This document shows, one piece after another, positions 2,928 through 64,000 of a DNA stretch of 64,000 nt. This stretch comes from an uncultured virus (IMG/VR IMGVR_UViG_3300028666_000003) (Duplodnaviria; Heunggongvirae; Uroviricota; Caudoviricetes): IMG/VR virus record IMGVR_UViG_3300028666_000003; one strand, given 5' to 3'. Both the position numbers and the translations under genes were made by a program. The notes below the pieces were generated by a model. The model worked only from the letters and a program-made list of their open reading frames with translations. It ran no database searches and was not told the origin of the DNA. Numbering within the stretch: the first letter of the stretch is position 1; every line of letters starts with the position of its first letter.

Positions 2928-2931
2928 ACAA

Positions 2932-2972: not shown

Positions 2973-2974
2973 CA

Positions 2975-3278
2975 CATTGGATCGTTCTCAGAGCGAGTTC
3001 GCAGTGCAGTGACGCTCTGGGCGCCCACAGGCATACCTAAGCACAGATGTCTCTGGCGTGGCGGCTGCCCCGCCTGAACAGGCCACGTGGGCCACGGAGA
3101 AAGCCAGGTGATCCGTCCCTGGCTATGCATCCCCTCTTGGGGTCCACGACTGCAGCCTCACTGCAGCGGGTAGGCCATGACGGCGCCAGTGCGGTCTTGT
3201 AGACCATCGGCACCGTGGGAGGCATCCCAAAGAGGGTGAAAACGAAAAAGCGCATAGGTGAATTTTCCCTTCTGCACT
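2975..3278 (-). ncRNA. Candidate ~300-nt structured noncoding RNA (alternatively 72-aa ORF 3037..3255)
   Basis: Own promoter motif upstream and terminator downstream; many nested complementary segments. Confidence 0.45.
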
Positions 3279-3280
3279 AA

Positions 3281-3308
3281 GTAACGTGGTGGGGCGACGA
3301 AAGGATTA
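3281..3308 (-). promoter_or_regulatory. Putative phage-sigma promoter (ATCCT-N15-CGTTAC)
   Basis: TAATCCT ttcgtcgccccacca CGTTAC on the minus strand. Confidence 0.6.
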
Positions 3309-3311
3309 AAT

Positions 3312-3806: not shown

Positions 3807-3809
3807 AAG

Positions 3810-4787: not shown

Positions 4788-4796
4788 AATACACTC

Positions 4797-5498
4797 CTAA
4801 AAAACAGGTCCAAGATCCGGGTAAAGCCCACAGAACCGCTTGAACACGTCTTCCATGGTGCCACTTGTCTTCAGAACTTTACAATCCACATCGCCTTGTT
4901 CCAGGTAGAACTTCAATTGCCTTATGCTGTTCTGATACTTCTGCGCCACGAGAGCAGTGTTTATCTCTTTGCCTCCATTGCGAATCTGAATGCGACGGAG
5001 TGCCTCTTTGAGAGGAGTCCCCATAAAACAGAAACTTACTTGCCTTGAATGGACTTCTCTGAAACCTTTCATGATCTCGTAAAAAGTGCTGCAAATATCC
5101 CCCACGATGACCCCCTCAAAGAGAATGTGGACATCCTTCTTCCACAGCGCTTTAAGGATCTGTTTGACAACTTGAGTGTCTCCCAATGAGTCACAACCAC
5201 CACACGCAGTATCCTTGAGATAAAGACCGATGAGGACCACTCCATATTGGGGTAGAAACGTAGCAACAGGCTTCTTATCCAACTGGGTGAGCGTAAGTAA
5301 GACAGCCTTCTTGTCATGCTGAATCATCCTCATCGGAATGGTGGACTTGCCTGTGCCATTTGCGCCTTTAAGATTGATTGCGTAAAGAGGCTTTCGGGGG
5401 CCTTTCGCAGCTTTTAGCGTGGAAAGTCTCCAGACGGGAATCCCATCGTAGCTGCTGATCCAAAGTTCCTCATCTCTTTCGATAGATCTGCGTGCCAT
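4797..5498 (-). CDS. P-loop nucleotide kinase (5hmdU-DNA kinase-type)
   Basis: INLKGANGTGKST Walker A; IGLY..CGGCD; ILFEG; lies between the aGPT-Pplase genes. Confidence 0.75.
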   Translation of the reverse strand: MARRSIERDEELWISSYDGIPVWRLSTLKAAKGPRKPLYAINLKGANGTGKSTIPMRMIQHDKKAVLLTLTQLDKKPVATFLPQYGVVLIGLYLKDTACGGCDSLGDTQVVKQILKALWKKDVHILFEGVIVGDICSTFYEIMKGFREVHSRQVSFCFMGTPLKEALRRIQIRNGGKEINTALVAQKYQNSIRQLKFYLEQGDVDCKVLKTSGTMEDVFKRFCGLYPDLGPVF

Positions 5499-7410: not shown

Positions 7411-7468
7411 ATCAGACTCCAAATACAAGACAGGGGTCGCATGGACCCCTGCCGTTGGTGTTGTGAAG

Positions 7469-7741: not shown

Positions 7742-8719
7742 CTACTTCTTGGCCTTGGCCGCCGACTTGCCCTGCTCGCCCAGGAACTTCTTCATGGACA
7801 TGACGCAGAGCATGCGGTCGATGCGCGGATCGTCCTTGCGGTCCCACTTGACACCGGCCTTCTTGGCCGCCTTGAACAGCGCCTCGTTCTCCTTGTAGGT
7901 GGTCTTGAGCTTGTCCACGAACTCGGCCTGGAGGGTGTTGAGGGCCGGAGCAGCCTTCTTCTCCTTCTTGGCCTTGGGCTCGGGCTCGGCCTTGGTGGTC
8001 TTCTTGGACTTCTTGGGGGCTTCCTCTTCTTCGTCTTCGTCCTCATCCCCCTCTTCGTCCACTTCCTCCAGGTCCAGGTCTTCGTCTTCCTCATCGTCCT
8101 CTTCGACGACGGGCTTGGCGGCCTTCTTGACTGGCTTCAGGTCCTTGGCCGCAGCCTTCGCGGGGGTCTTGGTGATGACTTCGTCCTCTTCGTCATCCTC
8201 TTCCACGGTCTTCTTGGCCTTGGTGTCGGGCTTCTTGCTCATGATGGTGTCCTCCTGGGACGGGGTGCTTTCCAGGGCAAGCACTTGGAGTTGGTTGTGA
8301 GAAACTACCAGAACAACCTTGTTCCCCTGGGACAAGGTTCTTGCGATCTGGCCTGTTTTTTGAGAAAGCACTTCCCGCAGATCATCCACATCAGCACGTT
8401 TGCCAAGGGGATAGACCACGTGAACTCGCTCTGCTGGAACCATGACTTCAGCAGATCCGTTGTGGGTGCACTTTGCTTTGCACTCCACTCGATCCAAGCA
8501 GACCTTGCATTCCACTGCGGTTCCGTCATGGAATCGGGCGAAACAGTCAGGCACTAACGAATGCTTGTCGCTCATGGTTGTCCTCAGAATCTGTTGAATT
8601 TTGAACTCAGGTTTCTTGCAGTGCGCACGAATCCATCGGGTTAAGGCTGGGGAAAGGGTGGTGGGAATCCCCTTGGACAGGATGCTATCGATGATGCTGT
8701 CCAATTCCTGCAGACTCAT
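7742..8719 (-). CDS. Cys-rich N-terminal domain in frame with a Lys/Asp/Glu-rich histone-like protein (internal start at 8242)
   Basis: DCF..ECKVC..ECKAKC; strong AGGAGG-ATG at 8242 begins MSKKPDTKAKK with acidic tracts. Confidence 0.65.
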   Translation of the reverse strand: MSLQELDSIIDSILSKGIPTTLSPALTRWIRAHCKKPEFKIQQILRTTMSDKHSLVPDCFARFHDGTAVECKVCLDRVECKAKCTHNGSAEVMVPAERVHVVYPLGKRADVDDLREVLSQKTGQIARTLSQGNKVVLVVSHNQLQVLALESTPSQEDTIMSKKPDTKAKKTVEEDDEEDEVITKTPAKAAAKDLKPVKKAAKPVVEEDDEEDEDLDLEEVDEEGDEDEDEEEEAPKKSKKTTKAEPEPKAKKEKKAAPALNTLQAEFVDKLKTTYKENEALFKAAKKAGVKWDRKDDPRIDRMLCVMSMKKFLGEQGKSAAKAKK

Positions 8720-31230: not shown

Positions 31231-31401
31231 TCACCCCTCAGCTATTTTGGCTTCATGTGCAAGTTGTTTATCGTGAATATGTAACAGGGCCTTCCTTTCC
31301 GAGATACTTAAACTCAGATAATCAGCGAACCCCAGCTGTGCTCCCCCTTTGGCGAGGTAATACCAGTTGGCTAGGAGATCACGCTGGGGATCATAAAATC
31401 C
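31231..31401 (-). CDS. Tail assembly chaperone C-terminal extension reached by -1 frameshift
   Basis: Start-less -1 frame ORF YDPQRDLLANWYYLAKGG..LSISERKALL..EG*, slippery G-GAT-TTT at 31395-31401. Confidence 0.65.
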   Translation of the reverse strand, partial: GFYDPQRDLLANWYYLAKGGAQLGFADYLSLSISERKALLHIHDKQLAHEAKIAEG

Positions 31402-32135
31402 GGCTGCTCCAGGAGGTCAAAGGAAACCTCGGTGGCGCAGTTGGCGCAGTTGATCTTCACCGACGTGTCCTGGAAACCCTCGTGCTCCCGCACGGTCTTG
31501 CGCAGTTCTGCCAGGAGTTTGTCCCCAACCTTGTTCAGAAGTATGGGGGTGTAGACACCGTTGTTCAGGAACTGTGGATTGCGCAGTTCCAGATCCGTGA
31601 GCAGGTCCATGGAGTTGCGCTTCTTCAGGGCCTTCATCTCTGCAACCCCATCCATGAGGCTAAAACGGATATGGAGCCCAGGTCGCACAGTGGAATCGTA
31701 CTCCACCATGCGCTCATTCCCCATGGGATAGGGAGTGATGGGGAATGAGTCCACATCTGACAGGTTGACCTCCCACTCGCTTTCCACGGCACATTGGGGA
31801 CACTTGGTCTTGAAATTGAAGTCATCGCCCATGGATTCCCTCCGAATATTGAAGAGCAGGGCCTGACGATCCCCGGACAGGAGACTGGTGACCAGATCCA
31901 TCTTGGCCTTGTAGTCAGAAGGCAGATCTGCTTCATCCAAGGAATCCACGCATGCAGCCAGAAGTTCGTTGATGGCGGTGCCATTCATGACCTTGACTTT
32001 GTCCGTAAAGTTCCGCTGTTCTTTGCCAGTCATTTCCTTGACAGTAGCAACTCGGCCACTGGGAAGGGTGATGGTTTTGACGTCACTCAGGCCATACAGG
32101 AGTGCCATCATGTCCACTGGCGCATTCTCGGTCAT
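31371..32135 (-). CDS. Tail assembly chaperone (T4 gp26-like, two CxxC)
   Basis: LPSG, EMTG.E, LLSGDR..L..IR, CPQC, CANC; between tube and tape measure genes. Confidence 0.8.
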   Translation of the reverse strand: MTENAPVDMMALLYGLSDVKTITLPSGRVATVKEMTGKEQRNFTDKVKVMNGTAINELLAACVDSLDEADLPSDYKAKMDLVTSLLSGDRQALLFNIRRESMGDDFNFKTKCPQCAVESEWEVNLSDVDSFPITPYPMGNERMVEYDSTVRPGLHIRFSLMDGVAEMKALKKRNSMDLLTDLELRNPQFLNNGVYTPILLNKVGDKLLAELRKTVREHEGFQDTSVKINCANCATEVSFDLLEQPDFMIPSVIS

Positions 32136-47419: not shown

Positions 47420-48023
47420 AATTGTCCCCTTTGACAGACGACTTCTTAGTGCCTCAGCAGAACTAAGAAGGTGGTTTAGCGTCACCAAGGGCAACAAACG
47501 TCTGTTGCGTATAGGCACGATGCCAGAGATGTTGTTGCCTGAGTCCTTCCTGAAATCCCCGCAGCATCCTGTGGAGCTCATGCTGATAGCTCTTATGGAG
47601 GGAGCCTGGATCAGTGCTGACGATTGGAAACCCTATGCCCGCCTGACCATTGCCTCTCGCCTGAAGCGAAAGAGAGCCCTCATATTCCATGACACGTTTG
47701 CTGAGATGCAAGAACCTGTGATGGACTACCAGCTACACGGTGGAACTTTCAAAGAACAACAGCGTATTCAGAAGTTTGCCAAACACATTTTGACTTTGCG
47801 CACTCCAGACGTGTATTTACAGGGTTGTGCTCGTCTGTGCCTATCCATCGCAAGTGAAAACCAGATAACCGCATGTGTCCACCCATTACACTGGATTCGT
47901 GCTGTCATAGCCACTCAGGATTTTCAACCTGCATTCGGTATGGCAGCTCTCCAAGTGGAGATGATGGACCAGAAGAAGACCTTGTGTAGGCTGATCAGGA
48001 CAGAACTGCCCGAGAACATCTAG
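47409..48023 (+). CDS. Hypothetical protein
   Basis: Coupled 204-aa ORF. Confidence 0.6.
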   Translation: MSIEIVPFDRRLLSASAELRRWFSVTKGNKRLLRIGTMPEMLLPESFLKSPQHPVELMLIALMEGAWISADDWKPYARLTIASRLKRKRALIFHDTFAEMQEPVMDYQLHGGTFKEQQRIQKFAKHILTLRTPDVYLQGCARLCLSIASENQITACVHPLHWIRAVIATQDFQPAFGMAALQVEMMDQKKTLCRLIRTELPENI

Positions 48024-49375
48024 TCCACTTCAGCGATCATCTGAGCCTGGCGTTTCTCAGCGATAATTGCCTGAGCGACTGCCAGGCTTTCCTTTGTGAA
48101 AGTCATATGGTTCTTAGGGTCCACGACAATCCGCAGATTCCGACTGGTGTTGAATTTCCCAAAGGGATGCTTGATGTCAGACAGGAAAGCACTCACTGTG
48201 GCTTTAGCAGCTGATTCCAAGCCACCGAACTTTTCCATCACAAGACTCACAAGATCCTTGCGACTGCAGTGTCCAGCCACGATTAACGTGTAGAGCAAGC
48301 TATTTCTGCTACCCAGTGTAAATCCCATGGAATCTGTGTTGGATACCTTGCGCCTGGGCGGAATCCGCTTCTCACCAAAGGAAGGCAGAGGCTTCTTCAT
48401 CTTCTTGGCCTTCTCAGGGTTCTCATACCCAGGAATCTTGTCCAGATCCAACTGTGCTGCCACCAAGTCCCGGTATTCAGGGTCAGTGTGCAGTTTGTGT
48501 AAGGATGCTTTGTAGACTGCTTTGATGCCTTCAGGGCTGATACGATACTTCTTGGCTAGGTTGGGACCACAGTTCCAATCATGCGTCAAGGCTTTGAGGA
48601 TGGCCAGGTCCCGGTCAATGGAACGGATGAAGTCCATGGAAGGCACAGAAATAGTGAGTCCCCCAAAGAAGTGGATCAGTCGTTCAAAGGCACGCTCTCC
48701 AATCAGTTCCCGGATCTCAGGAACGAGGGTATATTTGAACTTATTGGCAAATAGTTGGTCTTCTCTGACCTCCAAAGCCCCCTTGCTGTAATAAACACGA
48801 AGGCTGACCAAAACATGGTCAGCCAGGTAGCGAGCATACTTGGGATTGACGTCATAACCATGTGTGAGGGTTTTCAGCACTCTTGCACGATTACTCTCAT
48901 AGTCGTTGGCTAAAAGCACACCGAAGATGTAACGAGCAGCAGGTTGATAGCTGTCATCCTCCAATCGCAGGTTCTTCAGCAGATTGCTGTCCATGACCAA
49001 CTCATCCTGAGGAGTAGCGTTTGCAAGTGGGCCATACTCAGGAACTGCTGCATGTGTGTCAGGATCGATGTCATCTGATGACCGCTGGTAATCTCCAGGA
49101 CGTAGCCGAACCTCTGACCAGATTGCCTGTTTGATCACCTTTGTGGCATAAAAGAACAGGTTGCCTCTGGCTGGGTCAAACTTGGCAATCACCTCAGCGG
49201 CTTTGATGAGTCCAAACTGGGTCAGGTCATTCTCATCAAAGTTGCGAGGATCAAAGGAAACTGAGCGAATGATGCCACGGATGAGTGGCGCAAAGAGGGG
49301 CACAATCTCATTCTTAGGTTTGCCCAGGGCAATGTAACGAGACACACGCTCTGCTTCAAAGCAAAAATCAGCCAT
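48020..49375 (-). CDS. Multidomain transcription factor: sigma region 2 + Mor-like domain + C-terminal wHTH-like domain
   Basis: DLTQFGLIKA..FDPARG.LF.YA; ELIGE..L..FFGG.TI.VP..RD..I..LAKKY.IS. Confidence 0.7.
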   Translation of the reverse strand: MADFCFEAERVSRYIALGKPKNEIVPLFAPLIRGIIRSVSFDPRNFDENDLTQFGLIKAAEVIAKFDPARGNLFFYATKVIKQAIWSEVRLRPGDYQRSSDDIDPDTHAAVPEYGPLANATPQDELVMDSNLLKNLRLEDDSYQPAARYIFGVLLANDYESNRARVLKTLTHGYDVNPKYARYLADHVLVSLRVYYSKGALEVREDQLFANKFKYTLVPEIRELIGERAFERLIHFFGGLTISVPSMDFIRSIDRDLAILKALTHDWNCGPNLAKKYRISPEGIKAVYKASLHKLHTDPEYRDLVAAQLDLDKIPGYENPEKAKKMKKPLPSFGEKRIPPRRKVSNTDSMGFTLGSRNSLLYTLIVAGHCSRKDLVSLVMEKFGGLESAAKATVSAFLSDIKHPFGKFNTSRNLRIVVDPKNHMTFTKESLAVAQAIIAEKRQAQMIAEVD

Positions 49376-49937: not shown

Positions 49938-50585
49938 CTAATTACTAGCCCAGTCTGACGTCACTCCCTGAGCTTTACACATGCGTTCGATCTTGGTTAG
50001 GGCTTCCTGGATGAGTTGCCATCCACGCTGTTTGGACACATGGCAGAGAGCCGATGCATCCGCAATGGTCATTGGTTCTCCCAGGAATCCATACACTGCC
50101 CTGATGAGAAACCTTTTCCGGGGGGAAAGACGCATCAGGAAGTGTTTAAGCAGATTCTGCGCAGCAGTCTTGAAGAGTTCGTCTGGCTCAGGGGGTGCCG
50201 CTAGCTGCGACTCGAATGGCTGCGGTCGGTAACTGGTGTCCCCCACGGGAGCAGACAGATAGACAAAGTTGAACATTATTTTTGGCCGGTCTTCCTTCTT
50301 CATGGCCATGTAGTTACGCTTGGGGATGTGGACCACGCTGGACTTGTAATACAGTTTCCTGATCTCCTGACGCATCCTGAAGATGGCATAGGTGGAGAAT
50401 GAGGCTGCAGAGTCGTGCTCTTCCTCATAGTTATGGGCAGCCACAGTGGCCCCCAGGAGAGCTGCTTGGATCAAATCCTCCAGGTCATACGTGCTGTTAG
50501 GCACCTTGTGGGCACTAAGAGCAAGGGTGACTGCAAGACCATGAACTGAACTGACACGTTCTTCAACAATCTGTCTACTTACCAT
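49938..50585 (-). CDS. Sigma-70-family phage sigma factor
   Basis: EDLIQAA.LG..A..Y, FSTYA, V.IP, L.PR..I..YG, HTH VSKQR..Q...AL.K. Confidence 0.85.
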   Translation of the reverse strand: MVSRQIVEERVSSVHGLAVTLALSAHKVPNSTYDLEDLIQAALLGATVAAHNYEEEHDSAASFSTYAIFRMRQEIRKLYYKSSVVHIPKRNYMAMKKEDRPKIMFNFVYLSAPVGDTSYRPQPFESQLAAPPEPDELFKTAAQNLLKHFLMRLSPRKRFLIRAVYGFLGEPMTIADASALCHVSKQRGWQLIQEALTKIERMCKAQGVTSDWASN

Positions 50586-54123: not shown

Positions 54124-54509
54124 GACACAAGTCTGACTTCATCCTGCTCCATGGCACACCCTTTGGGGATCAGCGCCTGTTCTGTGACAAGAATAATATC
54201 CCATGGCCACCTCCACTGTTCCTGTCCGTTGCAGGCTGGGGGGTGTTCAGGATGACCAACATGTCTCAGATTACAGACGAGCAGATCCAATCCATGACAC
54301 ACGTGGCAAGAGGTGCAGAGTATGTGTCTTGTTCTAGTGCAGAACTGCCAGGCCCTGCAGCTATCGTGGACTTGGACACACAGTTTGCATTCGGAGACAA
54401 GGATTCTAACAACGCACACGGCCAAACTGACCCAGGCCAGAGGGATGGGCACAGCACACAGATTGGTGGTGGCACAGACATGACCCGTTACACAAGGCAG
54501 GGGATGTAA
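54120..54509 (+). CDS. Hypothetical protein
   Basis: ATGA coupling; WPPP..SQITD..ARGAEY. Confidence 0.6.
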   Translation: MRHKSDFILLHGTPFGDQRLFCDKNNIPWPPPLFLSVAGWGVFRMTNMSQITDEQIQSMTHVARGAEYVSCSSAELPGPAAIVDLDTQFAFGDKDSNNAHGQTDPGQRDGHSTQIGGGTDMTRYTRQGM

Positions 54510-54529
54510 CACAGTCTTCCAAGCAATAC

Positions 54530-54568
54530 AAAGGCCCAGGGTTTTCTCAACCTGGGCCTATTCTTTTA
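54530..54568 (+). terminator. Intrinsic terminator
   Basis: AGGCCCAGG...CCTGGGCCT followed by ATTCTTTT. Confidence 0.65.
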
Positions 54569-54731
54569 TCTTATGTTTCCAATAGCCGTTCCAAGCAGGG
54601 TCTTCTTGTATTACAGGAAAACGAAGAGGCCAGTTAATCCACGATTTGTTCTCTTTTAACCCCCGGGGCATTCCCTCTTTTTAGCCTCTTCTCACCGTCC
54701 GATTATAGCCCATTATCATTTTTATAAAATT

Positions 54732-55067
54732 TTACAGGGTTATGGCTTCTCCATTCGTGATGTAGCCATGCCATTGACAGTGTCCCAGGATTCTGACAGA
54801 TGGAGTCAGCGTCACGTCCAGGTAGGAAGATCCTGTCATGTGCCATCTAGCTTTGCCTGCAGTTCCTGGGTCTGTTCCTGGAATCCATACAGCAACCTTG
54901 TGGTCCATGCGTATGCCAGCAGCATTCCGTTTGTTATGGCAGGCAGGACATGAGAACATGAGTCCATCTGCTTCCTGGATCGTGTCTACGTGTTCCCAGA
55001 CATGCCCATTCACCTTTTCATGGAGAATCCTCAGGAATTGTGGATGTAGTTCAGAAAGTGGCAGCAT
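54732..55067 (-). CDS. DUF6527-like protein
   Basis: F.CP.C..H..W..TLTPSV..C.WHGYITNG. Confidence 0.7.
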   Translation of the reverse strand: MLPLSELHPQFLRILHEKVNGHVWEHVDTIQEADGLMFSCPACHNKRNAAGIRMDHKVAVWIPGTDPGTAGKARWHMTGSSYLDVTLTPSVRILGHCQWHGYITNGEAITL

Positions 55068-56095
55068 AGTGTGGCTCCTTTGTGTATAGTAGCACGTTCT
55101 GCACCTGCTTGGACCTTCTTTCAGGGATCCATGGCGTCTTATGTGTGATTTTGTGTATACATATTTATGTGCTTGGCATGTGTTGTGGCGTCTTATGTGG
55201 AAATTGTTGTATAATTCCCAGGGGGACCACCACCGCTCGCTACGGGTCTCCGATAGGGAAGCCTACCCCAGGTCCTTAGCTAGACTAGGGTTTAGCCTAT
55301 CGGACGGGCTCGGTCTCCGGTCCTCCCGGTCCCTCTCCTCTTCTTCTACTCGGTAGAATCTTCCTACTATTTCCCCTCTTCTTACTAAAGAACCTAGGAT
55401 ATAAACCCGGATCTCCTTCCCGTCCGTTAAGGCCCCTAGCTTCCCCCTAGACCCTCCGATCCTCTAGGCCCCTCTAGAGGCCCCGGAATAGGAAATGAGG
55501 GATTCTAGGGGCGTTTCCGGCGAATAGGACGGGAAGAGGGAGGACCCCTTCGATCTTCCCGGAAGAAGCTAGGGCTTCCCCTATAGAACCCGGAAGGATA
55601 GGCCCCGGAACGGACGGGGAGACTGGACTAGATCGAAAGGCCCCTTCCCGTCCGTTCCTTCCGCTCCAGTCTCCCCGGTAGGGTTCTAGGGTTCCCCGGA
55701 TCTTAGGTTTTAGGGGAGCGGGATCTAACGGACGGACGGAGCCGGATTCGTCTAGTCCAGCCGTAGGGGAAGGCGAAAGGCCCCTTTCGAGGGTTCCCCG
55801 GTAGGGTTCGGAAGGCTCTAGGCGATTCCCCGGAGAGGCGCGTCTTTCCTCGATTCCTTCCGTTCGTCTTTCTACGGGTCGATATAGCCTAACGGACGGG
55901 GCGCGTCTCTTAGGGCCTTCTAGGCCCCTTAAAATCGATTCCGCTATTTCTTCGACCTTTCGCTTTTTAGGACTCTTCCCGTCCTATCGATTCGAAGCAG
56001 GAAGGGGAACCCGTCGAAACGTACCGTACGTTAAATCCGAACCCGGAATAACGTACGGGAAGGCCCTAGCCTTCCGGGCCTTCGACGATAGAACG

Positions 56096-56157
56096 AAAAA
56101 GGCCCCTTCCGGGGCCTAGGGCGTACGTAGAAAGGCCCCGGTCGTTTCCGGGGCCTA
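56096..56157 (-). terminator. Tandem GGCCCC hairpin terminators
   Basis: AGGCCCCGG..CCGGGGCCT then GGCCCC-GGAA-GGGGCC-TTTTT on the minus strand. Confidence 0.65.
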
Positions 56158-56173
56158 GTTCCGTCCGATTCGT

Positions 56174-56362
56174 TTAGAGCAGGAAGAGGAACGCGAGGAA
56201 CGCGATAAACGCGATCCCGAAAAGGGGAAGGAAGAGGGATCGTTTCCGGGGAAGAGGCCGAACCCGGTAGATAGGCTCGATCCGATTCGCGGAAGAGTAG
56301 GAAAGGGAAGAGGCGGAATCCCTACGGGAAAGGCCGGGAAGAGTCCTATTAGATTCGAGCAT
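56174..56362 (-). CDS. 62-aa protein with C-terminal TM helix
   Basis: Its ATG is one of the few CA/TG sites kept in the island; basic stretch then hydrophobic C-terminus. Confidence 0.5.
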   Translation of the reverse strand: MLESNRTLPGLSRRDSASSLSYSSANRIEPIYRVRPLPRKRSLFLPLFGIAFIAFLAFLFLL

Positions 56363-56422
56363 TTAGTCCGTCCTATTAGATTCGAGCAGGTAGGGAAAGG
56401 GGCCTCTTTCGAGGCCCCGATT

Positions 56423-57046
56423 TTAGAACCCGTACTTAGCGAGGATCGCGGATTTCTTCGAAGTAGAAGCCCCTCGAATCTCCGAAAGGATTCCGGAAGC
56501 GATAGCCTTAACGACTAGCGCGTACCGTTCGGGCTCGAAGGAAACGCGCCCCTTCGAGTCTTCCCGGAGGATAAGGGACCGGGAAGCGTGGTACTTTCCG
56601 AACGGACTCCGGACGTCCGAAAAAGTTACGGAAATCGTCGTTTTCGTAGCCTTCCTTTTCGCCTCGTTCGAGCCCGCGAAATCGTCGAGGATCGATTCGA
56701 CGATTTCCTTTCGAGTAAAGACCCCGGAAGCGATAGCGCGAATAATCGCGCCCGTTACGGTCCCTTCCCCGAATCCGAGCGTATCCTTCGAACCGATAGT
56801 CCGACCGATAACCCGGTACGTTTCGGCCTCTTCCTTCGGGGCCTCTTCCGTCTTATCGGTTTCGGGCAGGGGATCGCTCTCCGGTTCCGGGTTCCCCGTT
56901 TCGAGAGAATCGGACGTTTCGAGGGTTCCCGTCGTTTCGTTCGCTTCCGGGTTCGATTCGAGAATTTCGAGGATCGAAGTATTCGGATTTTCGGAAGCGA
57001 GGACTTCGAGGATAGCGACGGGAGCGGTCTTATTAGATTTACGCAT
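56423..57046 (-). CDS. Acidic N-terminus + wHTH-like domain paralogous to the C-terminus of 48020..49375
   Basis: AAGGA RBS; downstream hairpin GGGGCCTC..GAGGCCCC; SDVRSPFGKYHASRSL versus SDIKHPFGKFNTSRNL. Confidence 0.8.
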   Translation of the reverse strand: MRKSNKTAPVAILEVLASENPNTSILEILESNPEANETTGTLETSDSLETGNPEPESDPLPETDKTEEAPKEEAETYRVIGRTIGSKDTLGFGEGTVTGAIIRAIASGVFTRKEIVESILDDFAGSNEAKRKATKTTISVTFSDVRSPFGKYHASRSLILREDSKGRVSFEPERYALVVKAIASGILSEIRGASTSKKSAILAKYGF

Positions 57047-58161
57047 TAGAGTATCCTTTAGCCCCTAGGGGCCTAGTCTAGCGTTTCCCGTTCGAGAGAT
57101 TCGGACGGGGCCTAGCTTATAGCGTTATCGGGACTGAGAAAGAAGTATCGGACGGGCCTTAACCCGGTTCCGTTCCTAGAGTCTATCCGAATCGGACGGG
57201 CCTAGGGGCGTTTATTTTTAGGGGAAAGATCCGGCCTAGTCCTATCGGGCCTAGCTAGAAGGAAGCGAGGATCGTACCGAATCGGACGGGCCTAGACGTA
57301 TTACTTTCGGGCAGGCCCGATTACCTATTAGAGTCTAGGGTTCTCCGGTATTAGGGGCCTATCCGGGAATCGGACGGAATACCGGGAATCGGGGCCTAAT
57401 CGGACGGGGAACGTAGCGTTTTACTACGCTCGAATCGGACGTTTAGGCGGAAAGCTTAGCTAGACTAGCGTTTAGACGAAAGAGGCGTTTTACTACGCTA
57501 CGTCGTATTTCGCTACGTAGTAAATTTTACCCTACTAGGCCCGTCCTATTCTTTACCTTTCGCCTAAGAAAGTCTAGGGTTTTAGGGTTTTAGGGCCTTT
57601 CTTACTATTCGGACGGGGAAGTATTTTACGATGGATTTATAGGAGGCCCGGTTTTAGGGGAAAGGTTGGTTTTAGGGGAATTTGGGAGAACTGTTTTAAA
57701 AGTGGTTAAAATGTGTGCATGATTGTTTGTGCACATGCATCAATTCCCCAAAATTCCCAAGAAAACAATCCACAAATTCCTCAAGAAACCAAAAGAACAT
57801 TTCTCTCAATTACCAATCCAATCTCTTCCAATTTTACCAATTCAATCAATCCAATATTTTCCATCGATATCAGATCCAAAAATACATCGATACAGATTAC
57901 AATTCCCCAAAAGAAACCAAAACTTCAGCAACAATTGATTCCAAGCCAGTTTCTTCCACTATTTCCCAATTCACCCGGCTAGAATCTTCCCGATAGCCTC
58001 AGAGCAAACATTCACCCAAATTTGCCCATAAGTTCACAGACAATTCCTCCATAACATTTCGTAGGGGGAGGCCATTCACTTTCAAAAAGCAGTTCCTCAG
58101 CATAAACAGGCAAAATCAGGCCCCGGTTTCCCAGGGCCAGAGTTTCTCAGGCTTACATGAA

Positions 58162-58743
58162 TCAGCCGTTCCACCATTTACAATATGGGTCACCGAACAG
58201 GGCTTCACGCTCATCAGCGGTTAACAGGTTCTTAACCTTCCACAAACCCCGATCCCTCGCATTAAGCCCAGCCGGCAGCAGCTTATCCGCAGTCTTATCA
58301 TAATCCAAACCTTTAGGGGGCTCAGGCTCAGGAACCCAGTCCACCGGCCCCAAGTCATAGCCTTCATCGGGGTCAAACTCAGGGTCCTCATACTCGCAGT
58401 TCCCACCCTCGAAGCAGAAAAGCACATCGACATAACCCTCAAAATTCGGATTTGGCAGGTTCTCATAGATCCCAGAGCCAAGGGCAAATCCGTAGATTTC
58501 CTCAGCAGCCATTCTCTCTTCGTCGGGGTCTTCCAACTCCGCAGGGGTCATCGGTCGGCCAATCGCGTCAGCGTATTCCCTCATCAGGAACTCAGCGTCA
58601 GAAACCAGGAAGAAAGCAGTATTCCAACCGGCCAATCGGGTCCCATCCAGCACATAGAACCAGATATAACCAACCCGGTCAATCGTTATCTTACACTTTC
58701 TCAGTTCGACAGGCTTTCCATCTCGCACGATTCCAGAGATCAT
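58162..58743 (-). CDS. Acidic early hypothetical protein (no Gln/His)
   Basis: Promoter-hairpin-GGAGG leader. Confidence 0.75.
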   Translation of the reverse strand: MISGIVRDGKPVELRKCKITIDRVGYIWFYVLDGTRLAGWNTAFFLVSDAEFLMREYADAIGRPMTPAELEDPDEERMAAEEIYGFALGSGIYENLPNPNFEGYVDVLFCFEGGNCEYEDPEFDPDEGYDLGPVDWVPEPEPPKGLDYDKTADKLLPAGLNARDRGLWKVKNLLTADEREALFGDPYCKWWNG

Positions 58744-58781
58744 TTCTCACAATCCTCCCAAAAGAGGGGCCTATTCCCCTA

Positions 58782-58820
58782 TAACTAAGGATACTCCCCA
58801 GAGAATCCAGGGAGTATCCA
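58782..58820 (-). promoter_or_regulatory. Putative early promoter motif TCTGGGGAGTATCCTTAGTTA
   Basis: Repeated four times upstream of genes; here inside a GGATACTCCC/GGGAGTATCC inverted repeat. Confidence 0.7.
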
Positions 58821-58846
58821 ATCTTCGCCAAAGCGAAACCAAGTAG

Positions 58847-59149
58847 TTAAAACCCAAGTTCCCAGTTTTGCAGAGATTCCAAATACTCAGGGCTCTCATA
58901 CTTCTTCAAGCGCCAAGCCAAATACTTCCAATCCTCCACATTATTAGCGCAGGCAAGGAGTCCAGCACCAACTTCCGCAGTAAACATCGCAGCCATTTCG
59001 GCAACAAGAACAGGACAGTCAGCCGGGACGTTATCGCCAAAGAGAACATCCAACTCAAACTTTCCGGTATCCTCTCCCTTCTCAGAGGTTTCAATAAACA
59101 GGCTATCCATTTTCTCGCAGTAGGCAATAGCCAAGGCCAAATCGGTCAT
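58847..59149 (-). CDS. Acidic early hypothetical protein
   Basis: GGAGGTG RBS, ATGA coupling. Confidence 0.7.
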   Translation of the reverse strand: MTDLALAIAYCEKMDSLFIETSEKGEDTGKFELDVLFGDNVPADCPVLVAEMAAMFTAEVGAGLLACANNVEDWKYLAWRLKKYESPEYLESLQNWELGF

Positions 59150-59559
59150 TTCGTCACCTCCCCAAGATTCCGTTTAGCCACACGCTCAGCGGCCTCATCG
59201 TTCACATACTTCGCATAGGCTTCATTCATCCCATAAAGCACGCTCTCAGTCGCAGGATTCGCAACGATAAACAAGGCCCGAGCGTCCCAATACGCCTCAG
59301 CCATCTCATCTTTCAACGAGGCAGTAAACAGCCCGCAACGCTTACCACTCTCAGGCTTAACCCTAAGCATAGGCCCAAAGGTTCCCCCAGAGTAGTCATC
59401 ATACAGCGCCCTCATTCCCCGGTCAAACTTTACAAAGTTAAGAACCCGAGAGGCCACGGAGTCACGGCGCTCAGACCTATCAAGGAGTATTCCCGTCATC
59501 CCCTCATAGTTCGCCATCTCTTTAGCCTTCGCAACGAGCAATTCCCGCATCTCAGCCAT
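59146..59559 (-). CDS. Early hypothetical protein (no Gln/His)
   Basis: Promoter-hairpin-GAGGAG leader. Confidence 0.75.
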   Translation of the reverse strand: MAEMRELLVAKAKEMANYEGMTGILLDRSERRDSVASRVLNFVKFDRGMRALYDDYSGGTFGPMLRVKPESGKRCGLFTASLKDEMAEAYWDARALFIVANPATESVLYGMNEAYAKYVNDEAAERVAKRNLGEVTK

Positions 59560-59595
59560 TTCACAATCTCCTCAAAAGAAGGGGCCTTTTCCCCT

Positions 59596-59625
59596 TAATA
59601 AAGGATACTCCCCAGAAAACTCAAA
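59596..59625 (-). promoter_or_regulatory. Putative early promoter motif (leftward)
   Basis: TTGAGTTTTCTGGGGAGTATCCTTTATTA. Confidence 0.7.
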
Positions 59626-59721
59626 CGGAAGGGCTTCGAGCCTACCTTGTGGAATTGATTCCGATCCTCTATTAAGTATCGTCTAAGCCTAGTCGCCGTT
59701 GGTTTTCTTTTGGGCTTTCTA

Positions 59722-59752
59722 TTGGGATCTCTGGGGAGTATCCTTATCGTAT
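59722..59752 (+). promoter_or_regulatory. Putative early promoter motif (rightward)
   Basis: TTGGGATCTCTGGGGAGTATCCTTATCGTA. Confidence 0.7.
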
Positions 59753-59786
59753 AGGGAATTAGCCCTATACTTGGGAGGATTGTAAG

Positions 59787-60047
59787 ATGAAATTCTTGGC
59801 GTTTTGGTCTAAAAAATATGGAATCTTTGGAACGTCTGACGTAAATGCGGAAGGATACCGGCTGTCCTTCTACTATAAAGCCTACCGGGTGACTGTTTCT
59901 CCTGCGAGGATTGCGCGTTGGAAAGCTAGCTTCGACCGTAACTGTTCGCTTGCGAATAACTACGGCTGTGGCCCTGATTACTATCCCGGTTGCGAGGATG
60001 AGAATAACGGGCTGGATCTTGGTTATGGTGACGTTTGCCCTAACTGA
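59787..60047 (+). CDS. Early hypothetical protein (no Gln/His)
   Basis: Promoter-hairpin-GGAGG leader; no CA in the coding strand. Confidence 0.7.
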   Translation: MKFLAFWSKKYGIFGTSDVNAEGYRLSFYYKAYRVTVSPARIARWKASFDRNCSLANNYGCGPDYYPGCEDENNGLDLGYGDVCPN

Positions 60048-60679
60048 TCCCTGAACTTTTGGATGAGCCCTGAATGAATGTTTTCGTGGTGTGCCTGCGT
60101 GTTGGAACCAAACACCCATGTTGCCGATGGCTGTGTTTATGGATAATTGGGTTCTGCGTGTTCTAAGGTTGACCCTGGGGGACTGAGACCACCGCATATG
60201 CGGCATAAGCCGTTAACACATGCACATGAATTTGATCATGCAAGTAACATTCAGCTAGATTCCCTCAAACATCCTCGCCTGACTCGTTAGGCTCGGAGGA
60301 TCGATTGACCCGGATTAGCGTGGAAGTCTTCAAGCAAAATCCCTATGATTTCACCGACGTTTCGGTCAAATTATCGGGATGCTAAATGCTTCTTGAATTT
60401 CCTGAATACACCCGGCTAAATCCTCTCGGTGGAGCCGAATCGAGGGAAAGCTAGGGTTATTTGGGCATGCACAATCGGTTCTCAGAGCGTGTTTGGGAAC
60501 TTTCGGAATACGACGATGCACGGACGTTTCCTGGTAAATTCTAGGTGTATTGGTTACAAACATCGGGGATGGGAGGGGGTTCACTTTTGAAAACAGATTC
60601 CTCAATAAATTCAGGCATAATTCAGGCCCCAAATCGTGGGGCCTGTTTCTCTATACTGTCAAAGACCTGTGCGTCTGGT

Positions 60680-60955
60680 TCAGCCTGGGATGGCGACCGG
60701 CTCAGGGGGAGGAGTGGGCGCCACGGACCAGGTCATGGTCGGATCGGTGAGAATGGCCATGGGCGTGAAGACCGGATTGCCATTGGGATCGAGGCTCACC
60801 ATGCTGGCCGTCAGGTCGTTGTCCAGGAACACGCAGGGCTGGAAGGTGCCGTCAGCATCCAGCGCCTGGGTCTGGGCGAGAGCATCGGCCACCAGGGCAG
60901 CTTCCTGGACACGATCCTGCTGGATCTTTTTGAGAAGAGGGAAAAGATTGGCCAT
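60680..60955 (-). CDS. Hypothetical protein
   Basis: AGGAGG RBS before MANLFP; biased codons. Confidence 0.6.
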   Translation of the reverse strand: MANLFPLLKKIQQDRVQEAALVADALAQTQALDADGTFQPCVFLDNDLTASMVSLDPNGNPVFTPMAILTDPTMTWSVAPTPPPEPVAIPG

Positions 60956-61004
60956 AGGGGCCTCCTGTGTTGGGAAAGGCTGCCAATTGATGGGTGGCAG
61001 TTGG

Positions 61005-61169
61005 TTATTTAATGAAACGGCTTTTGAGCTGAGCAACCTCAGTCTTTGCCATAGCCAAATCATTCTGTGCTTGTGCGGTCTCACTCTGAAACCTCTTGTA
61101 GTTGTTGCGCATCACCAGCATTCCAGCCGGGAAGGCAATGACAACTCCGATGATGAACCCCAGCAGCAT
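61005..61169 (-). CDS. Small membrane protein
   Basis: AAGGAGG RBS; MLLGFIIGVVIAF. Confidence 0.6.
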   Translation of the reverse strand: MLLGFIIGVVIAFPAGMLVMRNNYKRFQSETAQAQNDLAMAKTEVAQLKSRFIK

Positions 61170-61377
61170 AAAGCCTCCTTGGATAGTGGAAAGATCCACT
61201 TTGCTATATAGAACGAACCAGAAGCGAGAAAAGTTTTTATTTGATCTCCTTGGTTTGTTCTTGATAATACACAGCCTGGTCATTCCAGGTCCATCCGTGA
61301 GGTTTCTCCCAACGCTTGACCTCCCGGCCTTCAGCCAGCCATTCCTTGTAAGTCTTGAGGGATGTCTTGGCCATGGC

Positions 61378-61629
61378 TCACTTCTCCGTGTAGCGTTTGA
61401 CCAGGTTGAGTCCCAAATCATTCTCAAGGTAGTCCTCAAACTGCTTGAGCACACTGGCCTTCGTGCCCTTGAAGCCGCAGTGGTCCTTGATAAGCTTGAA
61501 CACGTTGCCCCTGCTAGCCTTCATCCCAGGGCACTTCACCTCGATTGCCAGGGCTCCTCTCCAGACCAGCAACTGAAAGGTTGCGATCCCTGCGGGAGTG
61601 TCGATCACGATGGTTTTGTTGTCAGTCAT
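61378..61629 (-). CDS. Hypothetical protein
   Basis: AGGAG RBS. Confidence 0.65.
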   Translation of the reverse strand: MTDNKTIVIDTPAGIATFQLLVWRGALAIEVKCPGMKASRGNVFKLIKDHCGFKGTKASVLKQFEDYLENDLGLNLVKRYTEK

Positions 61630-61637
61630 GTTAGCTC

Positions 61638-61853
61638 CTATCTCTGACAGTCGTTGGCGATGAAGACCTGTCCCTTCTTGTTAGAATCGGGATCGTCAAA
61701 GGCATACAGCACCCCATCTTCCTCAAATCCCGTGGTCTTTGAGACCATGGTGACCACTTGGCCACTCACCATGGTCACACGGTTGATGTAGGTGCCCTTG
61801 AACTTATCGAAGTCAATGATGAGGGTGGGTGCTTTGCTCACAGTTTCTCCCAT
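61638..61853 (-). CDS. Hypothetical protein
   Basis: Coupled ORF. Confidence 0.55.
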   Translation of the reverse strand: MGETVSKAPTLIIDFDKFKGTYINRVTMVSGQVVTMVSKTTGFEEDGVLYAFDDPDSNKKGQVFIANDCQR

Positions 61854-62140
61854 TTGTCAGTGTAGACCAACATATCATTGGGTTTGCTCAGGCTCGTGGC
61901 GATGATGTCAGAGCCCTCATACATGCTCATGATGGACTGAATACTGCCCTCAGGGAGTTCGAGTGGATTGTCCCCTTGTCTGAGTTCCCAGAGTTCTTCC
62001 AGGAGACCACAGAGCTTCTTGCCCTGTTCCAGTGTTCCTGATCCCAGACAGACTCTATGGCCACTGCCTGACACAAAGAGGTCAATCTTATAACGCTTGG
62101 GGATTTGCTGAAAATCAGGTCCTGTTGATGAAAGGGTCAT
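61838..62140 (-). CDS. Hypothetical protein
   Basis: ATGA coupling. Confidence 0.55.
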   Translation of the reverse strand: MTLSSTGPDFQQIPKRYKIDLFVSGSGHRVCLGSGTLEQGKKLCGLLEELWELRQGDNPLELPEGSIQSIMSMYEGSDIIATSLSKPNDMLVYTDKWEKL

Positions 62141-63033
62141 TTCTCACCAATCCTGTCTGCAAGACTGATGGTTTCACCAACCTTGCGGCCGGCGTTGAAT
62201 GCTGCGTGGTCCCGGTTGTCCAGGATCTTCTGCTGTTCACGCTGATACTGCCTGTGCCACTTCTCGCTCTGCTTCCTGTCACGTTCCTTCTCTGCCGCAG
62301 TGGGCTCCTTCACCGGGGTTGCCACATCGTGTTTATGAGCTTCCCTGTATTTCCTGGATTCTTCCTGAGACTTGGCCCACGCACCCTCACCGTATTGGGA
62401 GTCATAGTTGGCTTCGTATTCCTTCTGCGCCATGTTCTGGGTCCTGACGCCATAGGTCTGCTGGTGACCCTCTTCCGTCTTGGCGTTGTGGCGCTGTTCC
62501 CAGGACTTGTGCTGGATGCGCTCAATCAGCCGCTCCACGCAACCCTGGCGCCAGCTTACTGCTGCCTTGGATAACCGCTCCGTGTTGGGATATGGAATGA
62601 TCTCTTCCAGTGTCTCAACCAGGTATTCATACAGGATCGTGACGGCCACCGCATTGACTTCGCTGCCCAGGATGACGTGCCGCTTGACATACCTGAAGGC
62701 TTCACCCTGCCTGGTATTGTAGGATTCCTTGACTTCCTGCACCCAGTGCCAGCAGTAATTGCATTCTGCGATCACACGGCAGAGATCCTTCTGCCAGCCG
62801 TACATCGCTGACTTGTTGATCTTGGACTTCTCCCGCTTCTCCTTGGCAACCACGGTGCCACCGGCCACCGCAGTCTCCTGGATCACTGCCATGTCGAGAT
62901 TATATTTGGCCAACAAATCCATGGCCATATCCATTGCGTTGGAAGCCTCACCCTCCGTGGCTCCACGACCTTTGCCCAACGCCAGGAGTTTCTGGATCCT
63001 GCGGATAATGGAATCGTTCACCTTCTCAGCCAT
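62137..63033 (-). CDS. DUF2786-domain protein
   Basis: IIRRIQKLLAL..ATEGEA..A..A..LLAKYNL; AAGGAG RBS. Confidence 0.8.
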   Translation of the reverse strand: MAEKVNDSIIRRIQKLLALGKGRGATEGEASNAMDMAMDLLAKYNLDMAVIQETAVAGGTVVAKEKREKSKINKSAMYGWQKDLCRVIAECNYCWHWVQEVKESYNTRQGEAFRYVKRHVILGSEVNAVAVTILYEYLVETLEEIIPYPNTERLSKAAVSWRQGCVERLIERIQHKSWEQRHNAKTEEGHQQTYGVRTQNMAQKEYEANYDSQYGEGAWAKSQEESRKYREAHKHDVATPVKEPTAAEKERDRKQSEKWHRQYQREQQKILDNRDHAAFNAGRKVGETISLADRIGEK

Positions 63034-63184
63034 GATGCTTCTCCTTGTATTTGGCCCACTCTTGAGCCGTGATGTATTCTTTACCCTTACAGCAGGGGCA
63101 TTGCCTGGCCCATGTGGGAAGCAGAACCAGTGGAACCCATCCAGTTCCTGAACAGACATAGCAGGGAACCTTCACTGGTTGCAT
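63026..63184 (-). CDS. 52-aa DnaJ-type Zn-finger peptide
   Basis: MQPVKVPCYVCSGTG..CPCCKGK; GGAGG RBS. Confidence 0.6.
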   Translation of the reverse strand: MQPVKVPCYVCSGTGWVPLVLLPTWARQCPCCKGKEYITAQEWAKYKEKHHG

Positions 63185-63195
63185 ATCTTCCTCCG

Positions 63196-63226
63196 ATAAC
63201 TAATGATACGCCCCAGAGAGTCCAAA
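63196..63226 (-). promoter_or_regulatory. Putative early promoter motif variant
   Basis: TTGGACTCTCTGGGGCGTATCATTAGTTA. Confidence 0.6.
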
Positions 63227-63262
63227 CGCTAGGTTTGGTTTTCTCTGGAGCGAATCTGGGAA

Positions 63263-64000
63263 TCAGAGCCCTGCCACGTTGACGATGATGAGCTCAGACT
63301 TCGCACGGGTGGCTGCGACATACATCAGGTTGTATTCCTGGTGAAGCTGCCAATCCTTCTTGGCCCACTTGGAGGGGGAGAGTTGATTGGCACCCCACCA
63401 GAACACCCGGTTCCACTCCCGGCCCTTGCTTTTGTGAATCGTGCTCAAGGTGAGAGTCTTGACCCTGTTGTCCTGGTCGTCACCGAACAGCTTGGTGATG
63501 AAGTCAACCAGGTCAGACAGCTGCTTCTTGCCTTCTGCCGTGAGCCTCTCAATCAGGATCAGGAGGGTGCCCACCTTGTCCTCCACGGCATCGGCCTTCT
63601 CAGGCATCTCCTTGGCCAACCACTTCTGGACTTCCCTGTCCTTGTAGTCGTTGAGTTTAGTGACGAGGGCTGAGAGCGTGGTGATCTTCCAGCGGGAAGC
63701 GAGTGCGATGAGTCCCTGACCGATTTCCTTTCCCTCAACGTGACAGGCGATGCCCTTGCGAAGCAGGGTGTAGGCCAGGGAGATGAGGGGTTTGGTGTTG
63801 CGGCAGAGGATGGCGTCCTCCCCGTTGAGAGCCGTTTCACGATACCAGAACTCAGCCTCAAAGGCGTGAATCACTGCACCTTGAGGAGCAGACTCGTGAG
63901 CCGTGATATCGGGCACCCACTGCTGCGCATGAGCCACCACTGTCTTGGGGCATCTGTAGGTGACGTTCAGTGGCAGCGTGTCTGACTTGAAGTGCTCTGC
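63263..64000 (-). CDS. UvrD/Rep-family SF1 helicase, C-terminal part (runs off window)
   Basis: L.VTYRCP, ILCRNT, LSTIHKSKGREW, NLMYVAATRAK. Confidence 0.9.
   Translation of the reverse strand, partial: AEHFKSDTLPLNVTYRCPKTVVAHAQQWVPDITAHESAPQGAVIHAFEAEFWYRETALNGEDAILCRNTKPLISLAYTLLRKGIACHVEGKEIGQGLIALASRWKITTLSALVTKLNDYKDREVQKWLAKEMPEKADAVEDKVGTLLILIERLTAEGKKQLSDLVDFITKLFGDDQDNRVKTLTLSTIHKSKGREWNRVFWWGANQLSPSKWAKKDWQLHQEYNLMYVAATRAKSELIIVNVAGL

Follow-up and report, generated by a model that had tools for sequence, protein, structure and literature searches.

A gene block purged of one dinucleotide on its template strand in an uncultured phage with a predicted thymidine hypermodification cassette

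Background

What would make a phage give up one dinucleotide almost completely over a few kilobases, on the very strand from which its genes are read? The question is raised by a locus in IMG/VR record IMGVR_UViG_3300028666_000003, an uncultured virus of the class Caudoviricetes that is known only from rhizosphere metagenomes. We analyzed a 64,000-nucleotide (nt) stretch of this DNA (hereafter, the window, that is, the whole stretch at its full length), in which a zone of 4.9 kb at positions 55233-60108 has nearly lost one dinucleotide, TG, from the template strand of its genes. The original prediction for this locus took the zone to be a modification-free launch region of a phage that hypermodifies thymine in the TG context, readable by the host RNA polymerase at the start of infection, and offered the evasion of a host ribonuclease toxin by mRNA lacking CA as the alternative.

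The purge and its strand logic

The zone has three parts. Zone 1 (55233-57630, 2398 nt) is purged of TG and CA on both strands, with 4 TG against 162.6 expected from base composition and 10 CA against 134.4. An unpurged island (57631-57737), TG-rich on the plus strand (13 TG and 3 CA in 107 nt) and directly followed by a CA-rich stretch, separates it from zone 2 (57738-59647), where the genes are on the minus strand and the plus strand, their template, is purged of TG (6 against 71.8 expected; CA is found 229 times against 176.5 expected), with TG in the sense strand at its normal, high level. In zone 3 (59623-60108), the gene is on the plus strand and the plus strand lacks CA, so that the template again lacks TG; for 59624-60108, the counts are 0 CA against 20.6 expected and 47 TG against 41.6. 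The observed-to-expected (O/E) ratio of TG on the sense strand of zones 2 and 3 is 1.13-1.30. The strand flip occurs at 59623-59647, delimited by the last plus-strand CA at 59622 and the first plus-strand TG at 59648, and falls between two divergent promoter-like motifs, at 59601-59619 on the minus strand and at 59723-59746 on the plus strand. The mRNA sense of all five genes of the zone, including the untranslated regions (UTRs), is thus devoid of CA, and the template accordingly of TG, so that the purge tracks gene orientation. The counts of the original prediction for all three segments were reproduced exactly, and its placement of the flip and its claim that the purge follows the template strand were both borne out by the counts and the flip position.

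A 200-nt scan places the edges of the zone at approximately 55230 and at 60108; CA resumes at 60109, followed by 60113 and 60117. Elsewhere in the window, TG and CA are abundant, as had been claimed, with O/E values of 1.29-1.40. The same remainder (1-55232 and 60109-64000) is depleted in CG (O/E 0.54-0.59) and TA (0.46-0.56), a pattern that zone 1 reverses (1.35 for CG and 1.34 for TA). As a side observation, the genome might favor the modifiable pyrimidine-purine step and avoid the two non-modifiable ones.

Chance is excluded as the origin of the purged zone because the longest TG-free run, 965 nt, is 8.8 times the maximum of ~109 nt expected for 64 kb, and the longest CA-free run, 487 nt (the stretch 59623-60108), exceeds its expected maximum 4.6-fold. 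Computed for all 16 dinucleotides, this ratio does not rise above 2.4 in any of 10 other phages, scanned as whole genomes or in large part, or above 3.1 in any of 27 unrelated IMG/VR loci, which are single matches to the motif CTGGGGAGTATCCTT and served as background control only; none of these 27 loci contains a purged zone. Likewise, among the 220 open reading frames (ORFs) of at least 70 amino acids (aa) in the six frames of the window, only those of the zone are at or below 0.43 CA per 100 nt, the next lowest value being 2.8.

The purge is not an artefact of one assembly because contigs from four further runs of rhizosphere metagenomes are identical to it over several pieces, including 55404-55877, 55577-56107, 56158-56567, 56542-57363 and 56975-57594. 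These runs contain the same strain, the only two differences in the zone being 59573 C>A and 60027 G>T. Contig depth in one run seems raised over zone 1, but regions cannot be ranked by this measure, and no inference was drawn from it. A megablast search of the zone against phages gave no match.

The second-ranked odd stretch of the window, at 7897-8305 on the plus strand, contains an AA-free run of 359 nt (ratio 2.4) and a TA-free run of 410 nt (ratio 1.8); the plus-strand ORF 7899-8300 that overlaps these runs has no His or Gln yet a normal CA content.

Zone genes and the cost to their proteins

Four of the five genes in the zone have strong GGAGG-type ribosome-binding sites. The four genes in the one-strand parts encode proteins of 193 aa (58162-58743, minus strand, with a strong site of this type; 0 His, 0 Gln, 6 Trp), 100 aa (58847-59149, minus strand; 0 His, 1 Gln), 137 aa (59146-59559, minus strand; 0 His, 0 Gln, and not a single CA in the mRNA) and 86 aa (59787-60047, plus strand; 0 His, 0 Gln). 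Together, these proteins contain one His or Gln in 516 residues, compared to 6.3% in the products of a reference set of 15 genes of the window outside the zone (binomial P ~1e-13). The depletion extends to all codon phases: per 100 codons, the four genes have 0.2 CA at positions 1-2 (6.3 in the reference genes), 0.4 at positions 2-3 (4.7) and 0.0 at the junction between codons (13.7), and sense-strand TG at codon junctions reaches 19.4, compared to 11.5 in the reference. The only gene of zone 1 (56423-57046, minus strand), where both strands are purged, encodes a 207-aa protein in which Met is limited to the start residue, Cys, Trp and Gln are missing, and His occurs once; the probability of this joint depletion of five residues is ~3e-11. 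The constraint acts on nucleotides and overrides protein sequence, and UTRs and non-coding DNA are purged too.

The only homolog of the 193-aa protein, P0002 (35% identity, 190 aa), is similarly depleted, with 1 His and 0 Gln, and the structure model of the 193-aa protein (predicted local distance difference test score, pLDDT, of 40) is unusable. The 100-aa protein has no match in PHROG or Pfam, and the homolog search with the 137-aa protein returned only the window's own protein.

Long antisense frames run opposite real genes of the zone (59595-60206, minus strand, 203 aa; 56427-57068, plus strand, 213 aa) because a TG-free strand can hold neither TGA nor any standard start codon. Gene callers may mis-annotate such TG-purged zones.

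The promoter-like cassette and the elements of zone 1

Three of the zone genes are preceded by a promoter-like and 5'-UTR cassette of ~65 nt, TCTCTGGGGAGTATCCTTA-N4-TATAGGGG followed by GGGAGGATTGT-ATG. Copy 1 (58743-58819, minus strand; repeats D4, I2 and I6) is an exact match to the motif, TCTCTGGGGAGTATCCTTA-N4-TATAGGGG, with AGGCCCC and GGGAGGATTGTGAGAA-ATG, and its upstream half forms the 3' arm of a 14-bp hairpin (58819-58789). Copy 2 (59559-59631, minus strand; D4, I3) is divergent from copy 3 (59715-59789, plus strand; I2, I3, I6), which heads the plus-strand gene. A fourth, weaker copy of the motif, TCTCTGGGGCGTATCATTAGTTATCGGAGG, with two mismatches, lies outside the zone at 63185-63220 on the minus strand. 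Directly behind it, a 52-aa ORF (63026-63184, minus strand) that starts with MQPVKVPCYVCSGTGW, a CxxCxGxG zinc-finger-like motif, overlaps, in another frame, the start of a 340-aa DUF2786/DUF7168 gene.

Zone 1 is mostly non-coding, with ~1.8 kb devoid of any plausible ORF, and is populated by GC hairpins and short repeats; no Rfam family or tRNA scored above threshold in the zone. Of the 11 CA at 55250-57630, 9 belong to CAG and the other 2 to CAT, the complement of ATG codons on the minus strand; five of the zone 1 exceptions are GCAGG, three of these within one repeated element (family D5). Scattered in both orientations over 55300-57616 are copies of TCGGACGG, candidate protein-binding repeats, some of them extended to CCGAATCGGACGGGCCTAG (family D1). 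Zone 1 holds 9 of the 10 exact TCGGACGG matches in the window; with up to one mismatch, the enrichment is modest, at 43 matches against 32 expected in the whole window.

The two outer flanks rank among the four 100-nt windows with the highest TG density on the plus strand. The right flank (60060-60159) ranks first, with 20 TG per 100 nt, and 55099-55198, on the left, is fourth with 18. The left flank (55132-55222, plus strand) holds a TG-rich motif twice in direct orientation (55132-55159 and 55186-55213; repeat family D20), these copies being the only exact matches to this motif in the window, and a TATAAT hexamer (55211-55216), oriented into zone 1, ends the second copy. A sigma-70 scan of 54500-60800 yielded one site compared to a mean of 5.6 in shuffled sequences, which is uninformative given that the consensus itself contains TG and CA.

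The family of the 207-aa protein

The 207-aa protein is predicted to combine an N-terminal half that is acidic and disordered with a C-terminal domain of winged-helix-like fold, residues 90-207 being modeled at pLDDT >90. Almost all structures matched by this fold are winged-helix DNA binders, at weak scores (VIA-align Z of 4.2-5.7 over 57-101 residues, where Z below 8 can reflect a common arrangement); the best Foldseek E-value is 0.09, there is no Pfam match, and the ESM Atlas gave no informative cluster. A search of 1.84 billion representatives at E<=1e-3 retrieved 45 homologs, of which 31 reach E<=1e-10; all 45 come from metagenomes, on contigs of up to ~80 kb.

The tree of this family includes 48 rows, namely, the protein from the window, 44 of the 45 homologs (one 71-aa match was dropped for length) and three further members. 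The missing-residue signature, defined as no more than one internal Met, Cys or Trp and no more than one His or Gln, is present in 17 rows, which are 31-51% identical to the protein from the window; 5 more rows come close, and 26 have ordinary composition. Purged members (for example P0043, P0015 and P0051, on contigs of 79.4, 45.5 and 42.6 kb) and members of normal composition (such as the sisters P0037, on a contig of 80.4 kb, and P0010) are interleaved on the tree, and the well-supported branches force at least 5-6 changes of state. Sister pairs at ~52% identity differ in exactly the signature residues (Q>E, H>Y, M>L), and the conserved His of the YHASR motif is retained in most purged members. 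The signature is spread over the family, interleaved with normal members, and P0002 is likewise depleted, so we infer a purge pressure that is probably long-standing, acts in many lineages and switches on and off.

A tblastn search with the 207-aa protein and P0043 against 50,697 phage records found nothing, and contig searches with the 193-aa protein, the 340-aa neighbor of the zone, P0002, P0043 and alignments A1 and A3 against viral, metagenome or genome contigs yielded no confirmed locus.

The thymidine hypermodification cassette

The original prediction linked the zone to thymidine hypermodification, and the genes for such a pathway are indeed identifiable. By PHROG and Pfam matches and by tblastn with gp13, gp14 and gp17 of phage YuA, a predicted cassette based on 5-hydroxymethyldeoxyuridine (5-hmdU) is located at 1174-7428 on the minus strand. 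It includes an HD-domain deoxynucleotidase-like gene (1174-1722; Pfam), a thymidylate-synthase homolog (1719-2975; Pfam Thymidylat_synt E 1.1e-24; PHROG thymidylate synthase E 3.5e-70), an HMUDK helical-domain protein (3810-4787; HMUDK_hel E 3.5e-65), a P-loop kinase homologous to YuA gp13 (about 4795-5498; E 5e-16; P-loop GANGTGKS) and a GATase-ADDT/aGPT-Pplase3 fusion (5470-7428; ADDT E 7.9e-22; aGPT-Pplase3 E 4.2e-8; N-terminal GATase_6), all on the minus strand. The thymidylate-synthase homolog is 32.6% identical to YuA gp17, annotated as a putative deoxyuridylate hydroxymethyltransferase; sequence cannot tell hydroxymethylation from methylation. A GIY-YIG homing-endonuclease gene (3312-3806, minus strand) lies within the cassette, with the thymidylate-synthase homolog on one side and the gene for the HMUDK helical-domain protein on the other.

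The TG context, which the original prediction assigned to the modification, has published backing in related phages and is predicted for the present one. The resistant restriction sites in phages M6, ViI and phiW-14 share TG or TC, and the M6 kinase is reported to modify TG (Flodman et al. 2019, PMC6449724); Acinetobacter phage SH-Ab 15599 carries diaminopropane-modified thymine (dapT) predominantly at TG, at near-full occupancy (2026, PMC13458397). Modified T is reported to account for 14-50% of T in such phages (PMC6449724, PMC13458397); TG outside the zone makes up 34.6% of all T in the window, within this range. The avoided dinucleotide is therefore the one modified by related systems, a match for which chance coincidence amounts to roughly 1 in 8 to 1 in 16. 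TC is not avoided in the zone (O/E 1.35-1.53), so the enzymes of this phage would be TG-specific if the purge reflects DNA modification.

A proposed template free of modification sites

We favor, tentatively and with confidence that falls just short of even, the explanation that the zone is a block of early genes in which the template strand offers no target to the thymidine hypermodification of the phage itself. Under this explanation, 5-hmdU would replace T during replication, and 5-hmdU in 5'-TG-3' would then be converted to a bulky hypermodified base, so that about a third of all T in the virion DNA would bear an adduct. When located on the strand being read, the adduct would, in this lineage, hinder RNA polymerase, by itself or through a host attack on the adduct, and selection would strip TG from the template of a set of genes, presumably those first expressed, that are furnished with strong ribosome-binding sites and the shared promoter-like cassette; the sense strand would keep its TG. 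Both strands would be purged where the DNA is read both ways or is kept as an unmodified duplex, as may be the case at 55233-57630, with its TCGGACGG sites and winged-helix-like gene, and the very TG-dense flanks would act as modification-dependent barriers.

Eight other phages with a 5-HMUDK-type cassette were scanned for such a zone, two of them in part (50 of the 58.7 kb of YuA and 50 of the 54.5 kb of Rhizobium phage RHph_TM26) and six as whole genomes (Microbacterium phage Golden, Bacillus phage YungSlug, the ViI-like Salmonella phage PhiSH19, Vibrio phage D509, phiW-14 and SH-Ab 15599). A zone of this kind is also missing from phage DP SC_6_H4_2017 and from the part scanned (160 of 190 kb) of Microcystis phage Mel-JY01, both of which are distantly related through the terminase. 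YungSlug, the source of the HMUDK helical-domain protein closest to that of the window, has CA-free runs at 31283-31675 (394 nt, ratio 2.1) and 108433-108775 (344 nt, ratio 1.8) of its genome (MT416612.2), far weaker than those described here.

Several observations weigh against the explanation given above. None of the eight 5-HMUDK-type phages contains a comparable zone, the top ratio being 2.4 for any dinucleotide and 2.1 for TG or CA, and this holds for SH-Ab 15599, in which nearly all TG is reported to be modified. Within the window, the replication genes (primase, DnaB, helicases) are unpurged, yet must be transcribed from parental DNA, and the fourth copy of the promoter-like motif (63220 to 63185, minus strand) heads unpurged genes, a caveat that the original prediction had raised and that holds. 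The promoter-like cassette itself contains a conserved TG on the sense strand, and approximately 100 nt located 5' of the plus-strand promoter motif (59623-59722) are also free of CA, for which reading of the template from that promoter offers no explanation. The purge of both strands at 55233-57630 needs an extra assumption, whether the relevant molecule is DNA or RNA: either this segment is transcribed both ways, or it must be an unmodified duplex for the binding of a protein. The TCGGACGG repeats and the weak winged-helix-like match (Z of at most 5.7) are a hint of such binding. Finally, the modification of TG in this phage, the block to transcription by the adduct and the early timing of the zone genes are all steps that we infer, and the nucleotide-level purge in relatives is likewise deduced from protein composition.

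The interpretation that came with the original prediction is thus supported in part, by the cassette, by the TG context in the literature and by the tracking of the template strand, and is weakened by the absence of a zone in the eight phages with related cassettes. TG modification alone does not force the purge because SH-Ab 15599 modifies TG and has no zone, and hypermodification at TG does not, in general, entail such a purge. A lineage-specific factor must therefore add to it: the adduct may be bulkier, the polymerase more sensitive, or the host active against the adduct.

An extended version of this explanation, which we consider doubtful as a whole, is that hypermodified thymine in TG is a strand-specific transcription stop around which a lineage of ~80-kb soil phages built its expression program. 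Immediate-early genes would have TG-free templates, at the cost of His and Gln and, in one gene, also of Met, Cys and Trp; TG-dense flanks would be insulators; the same promoter on unpurged genes would provide delayed expression; and the purged state would be repeatedly gained and lost with the chemistry or with the hosts.

Alternative explanations

The statements that the template lacks TG and that the RNA lacks CA are one and the same at the level of sequence and are inseparable by sequence alone. Accordingly, the alternative already named in the original prediction, a purge at the RNA level, predicts exactly the same pattern. Zone transcripts would be kept free of 5'-CA-3' against an endoribonuclease that cuts at CA, be it a host toxin, a defense effector or the phage's own host-shutoff enzyme, and we regard this possibility as unlikely but still the strongest of the competitors. 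Every zone mRNA indeed lacks CA, including UTRs and codon junctions; the pressure would be independent of DNA modification, which fits the absence of a zone in the eight other hypermodifying phages, and, if host-dependent, it would also fit a signature that close members of the 207-aa family have repeatedly gained and lost. Parallels exist: animal viruses are known to suppress dinucleotides that expose them to RNA sensors (CpG to ZAP, UpA to RNase L), and mRNAs without ACA are resistant to MazF. For zone 1, it would have to be supposed that both strands are transcribed and neither RNA contains CA, so that the DNA loses CA and TG alike; the GCAGG exceptions, if they are transcription starts with C at -1 and A at +1, would not place CA in the RNA. 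Against the RNA-level purge, we know of no ribonuclease of plain CA specificity, and no nuclease family was found among the zone proteins in the PHROG and Pfam scans, with no search aimed at a CA-specific ribonuclease. It would also reduce to coincidence, at the roughly 1 in 8 to 1 in 16 mentioned above, the agreement between the avoided dinucleotide and the TG targeted by modification systems of the kind that the phage encodes. Furthermore, the other mRNAs of the phage are CA-rich (24.7 CA per 100 codons in the reference genes) and would still be exposed, and both the TG-dense flanks and the rise of CG and TA in zone 1 against their genome-wide depletion are left unexplained.

A defense-driven variant of the modification-free template draws on the same sequence evidence and appears improbable to us. 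Here, a host enzyme, such as a glycosylase or a modification-dependent nickase, would attack hypermodified T, the resulting abasic sites or nicks would block transcription only when on the template, and early counter-defense genes would be spared. Pressure from particular hosts would account for the lack of a zone in other TG-modifying phages and for the frequent flips of state within the 207-aa family. Some described defenses are glycosylases that remove modified bases from phage DNA; to our knowledge, none acts on hypermodified T. Damage elsewhere in the genome would still block replication, so that early expression alone may not rescue the phage, and PHROG, Pfam and the ESM Atlas gave no functional assignment for the zone proteins. 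Flodman et al. (PMC6449724) state that they had found no modification-dependent enzyme against modified T.

It is comparably improbable that zone 1 is mainly a platform for protein recognition (an origin, a packaging site or an injection stop) with both strands free of major-groove adducts, and that the purge of zones 2 and 3 is a separate, transcription-linked phenomenon. The concentration of exact TCGGACGG sites in zone 1, in both orientations and amid short repeats and hairpins, is in line with this possibility, and so is the extent of non-coding DNA around a single gene whose product, with its predicted winged-helix-like domain, is a candidate binder; moreover, the both-strand signature (loss of Met, Cys, Trp, His and Gln) travels with the 207-aa gene in 17 of the 48 family members. 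As stated, the platform leaves zones 2 and 3 unexplained, the winged-helix match is weak, and the TCGGACGG enrichment becomes modest once a mismatch is allowed.

The remaining candidates were rejected: a shortage of tRNA-His and tRNA-Gln by the purge of non-coding DNA and codon junctions, a mutational origin through a cytosine deaminase (CA to TA) by the TA content of zone 2 (O/E 0.63, not raised), the GC content of zone 1 (0.553 compared to 0.516 in the rest of the window) and the conservative amino-acid replacements, and avoidance of a CRISPR protospacer-adjacent motif or of restriction sites by an asymmetry that follows transcription.

Relation to known systems and implications

Neither the DNA-level nor the RNA-level mechanism has a described precedent. 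The literature search, which left most subscription journals outside, found no dinucleotide-free gene block that tracks the template, no phage proteins stripped of His and Gln, and no paper that links a modification context to a purged gene block. Among the closest known systems, the phages with 5-hmdU hypermodification (M6, ViI, phiW-14, SP10, SH-Ab 15599) encode the same kind of cassette, and published work assigns the modification to TG or to TG and TC; unlike the window, none of the eight scanned genomes has a dinucleotide-free block. In restriction-site avoidance, selection likewise acts against a short word recognized by a nucleic-acid-targeting activity, but this avoidance concerns palindromic sites of 4-8 bp and is genome-wide and the same on both strands, whereas here the word is a non-palindromic dinucleotide, the near-absolute depletion is confined to 55233-60108 (4.9 of 64 kb), and in 57738-60108 it is one-stranded and switches with gene orientation. 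Suppression of dinucleotides in viral RNAs and ACA-less mRNAs are likewise read in the sense of the transcript and shape codon choice; those cases concern animal viruses or individual mRNAs that are engineered or linked to a toxin, are partial and do not remove whole amino acids. The zone thus differs from known cases of avoidance in being local, near-absolute, strand-switching and costly at the level of amino acids.

The layout also recalls the pre-early or first-step-transfer DNA in T5-like phages and the early region in those resembling T7, in that a compact block of small genes annotated without function, with promoters of its own, adjoins a repeat-rich non-coding stretch; the zone might, likewise, be the first DNA to act in the cell. 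The phage in the window differs from these in being myovirus-like with sigma-like proteins, and we know of no dinucleotide purge in T5-like or T7-like early regions.

Phage DNA hypermodifications have been studied almost solely as shields against restriction, rather than for their cost to, or regulation of, the phage's own gene expression. The zone is a natural experiment in this respect: the genome itself marks which dinucleotide and which strand matter, to the point that 2-5 amino acids were removed from real, conserved proteins. If the purge reflects DNA modification, the modification motif of uncultured phages would be readable from sequence alone, immediate-early genes could be found without expression data, and base modification would be a strand-specific transcriptional gate, that is, a cis-acting regulator of phage transcription. 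If it reflects RNA cleavage, the zone would point to an undescribed defense through a CA-specific ribonuclease. Either way, the signature (no His or Gln, with or without the loss of Met, Cys and Trp) provides a simple key with which protein sets from metagenomes can be searched for more cases.

Other features of the phage

The phage is myovirus-like, with genes for a portal, large terminase, major head protein, baseplate, primase, DnaB and two sigma-like proteins. Its nearest isolates share only ~41% identity in the large terminase, and the record closest to it is G001, a fragment of 52.6 kb contained in the window. The sigma-like proteins are encoded at 48020-49375 and 49938-50585, both on the minus strand, and one of them also has a weak Mor-like match; genes for an HU-like DNA-binding protein and a RusA resolvase adjoin them. 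The two sigma-like proteins and their neighbors suggest that the host RNA polymerase may be redirected for the transcription of later genes.

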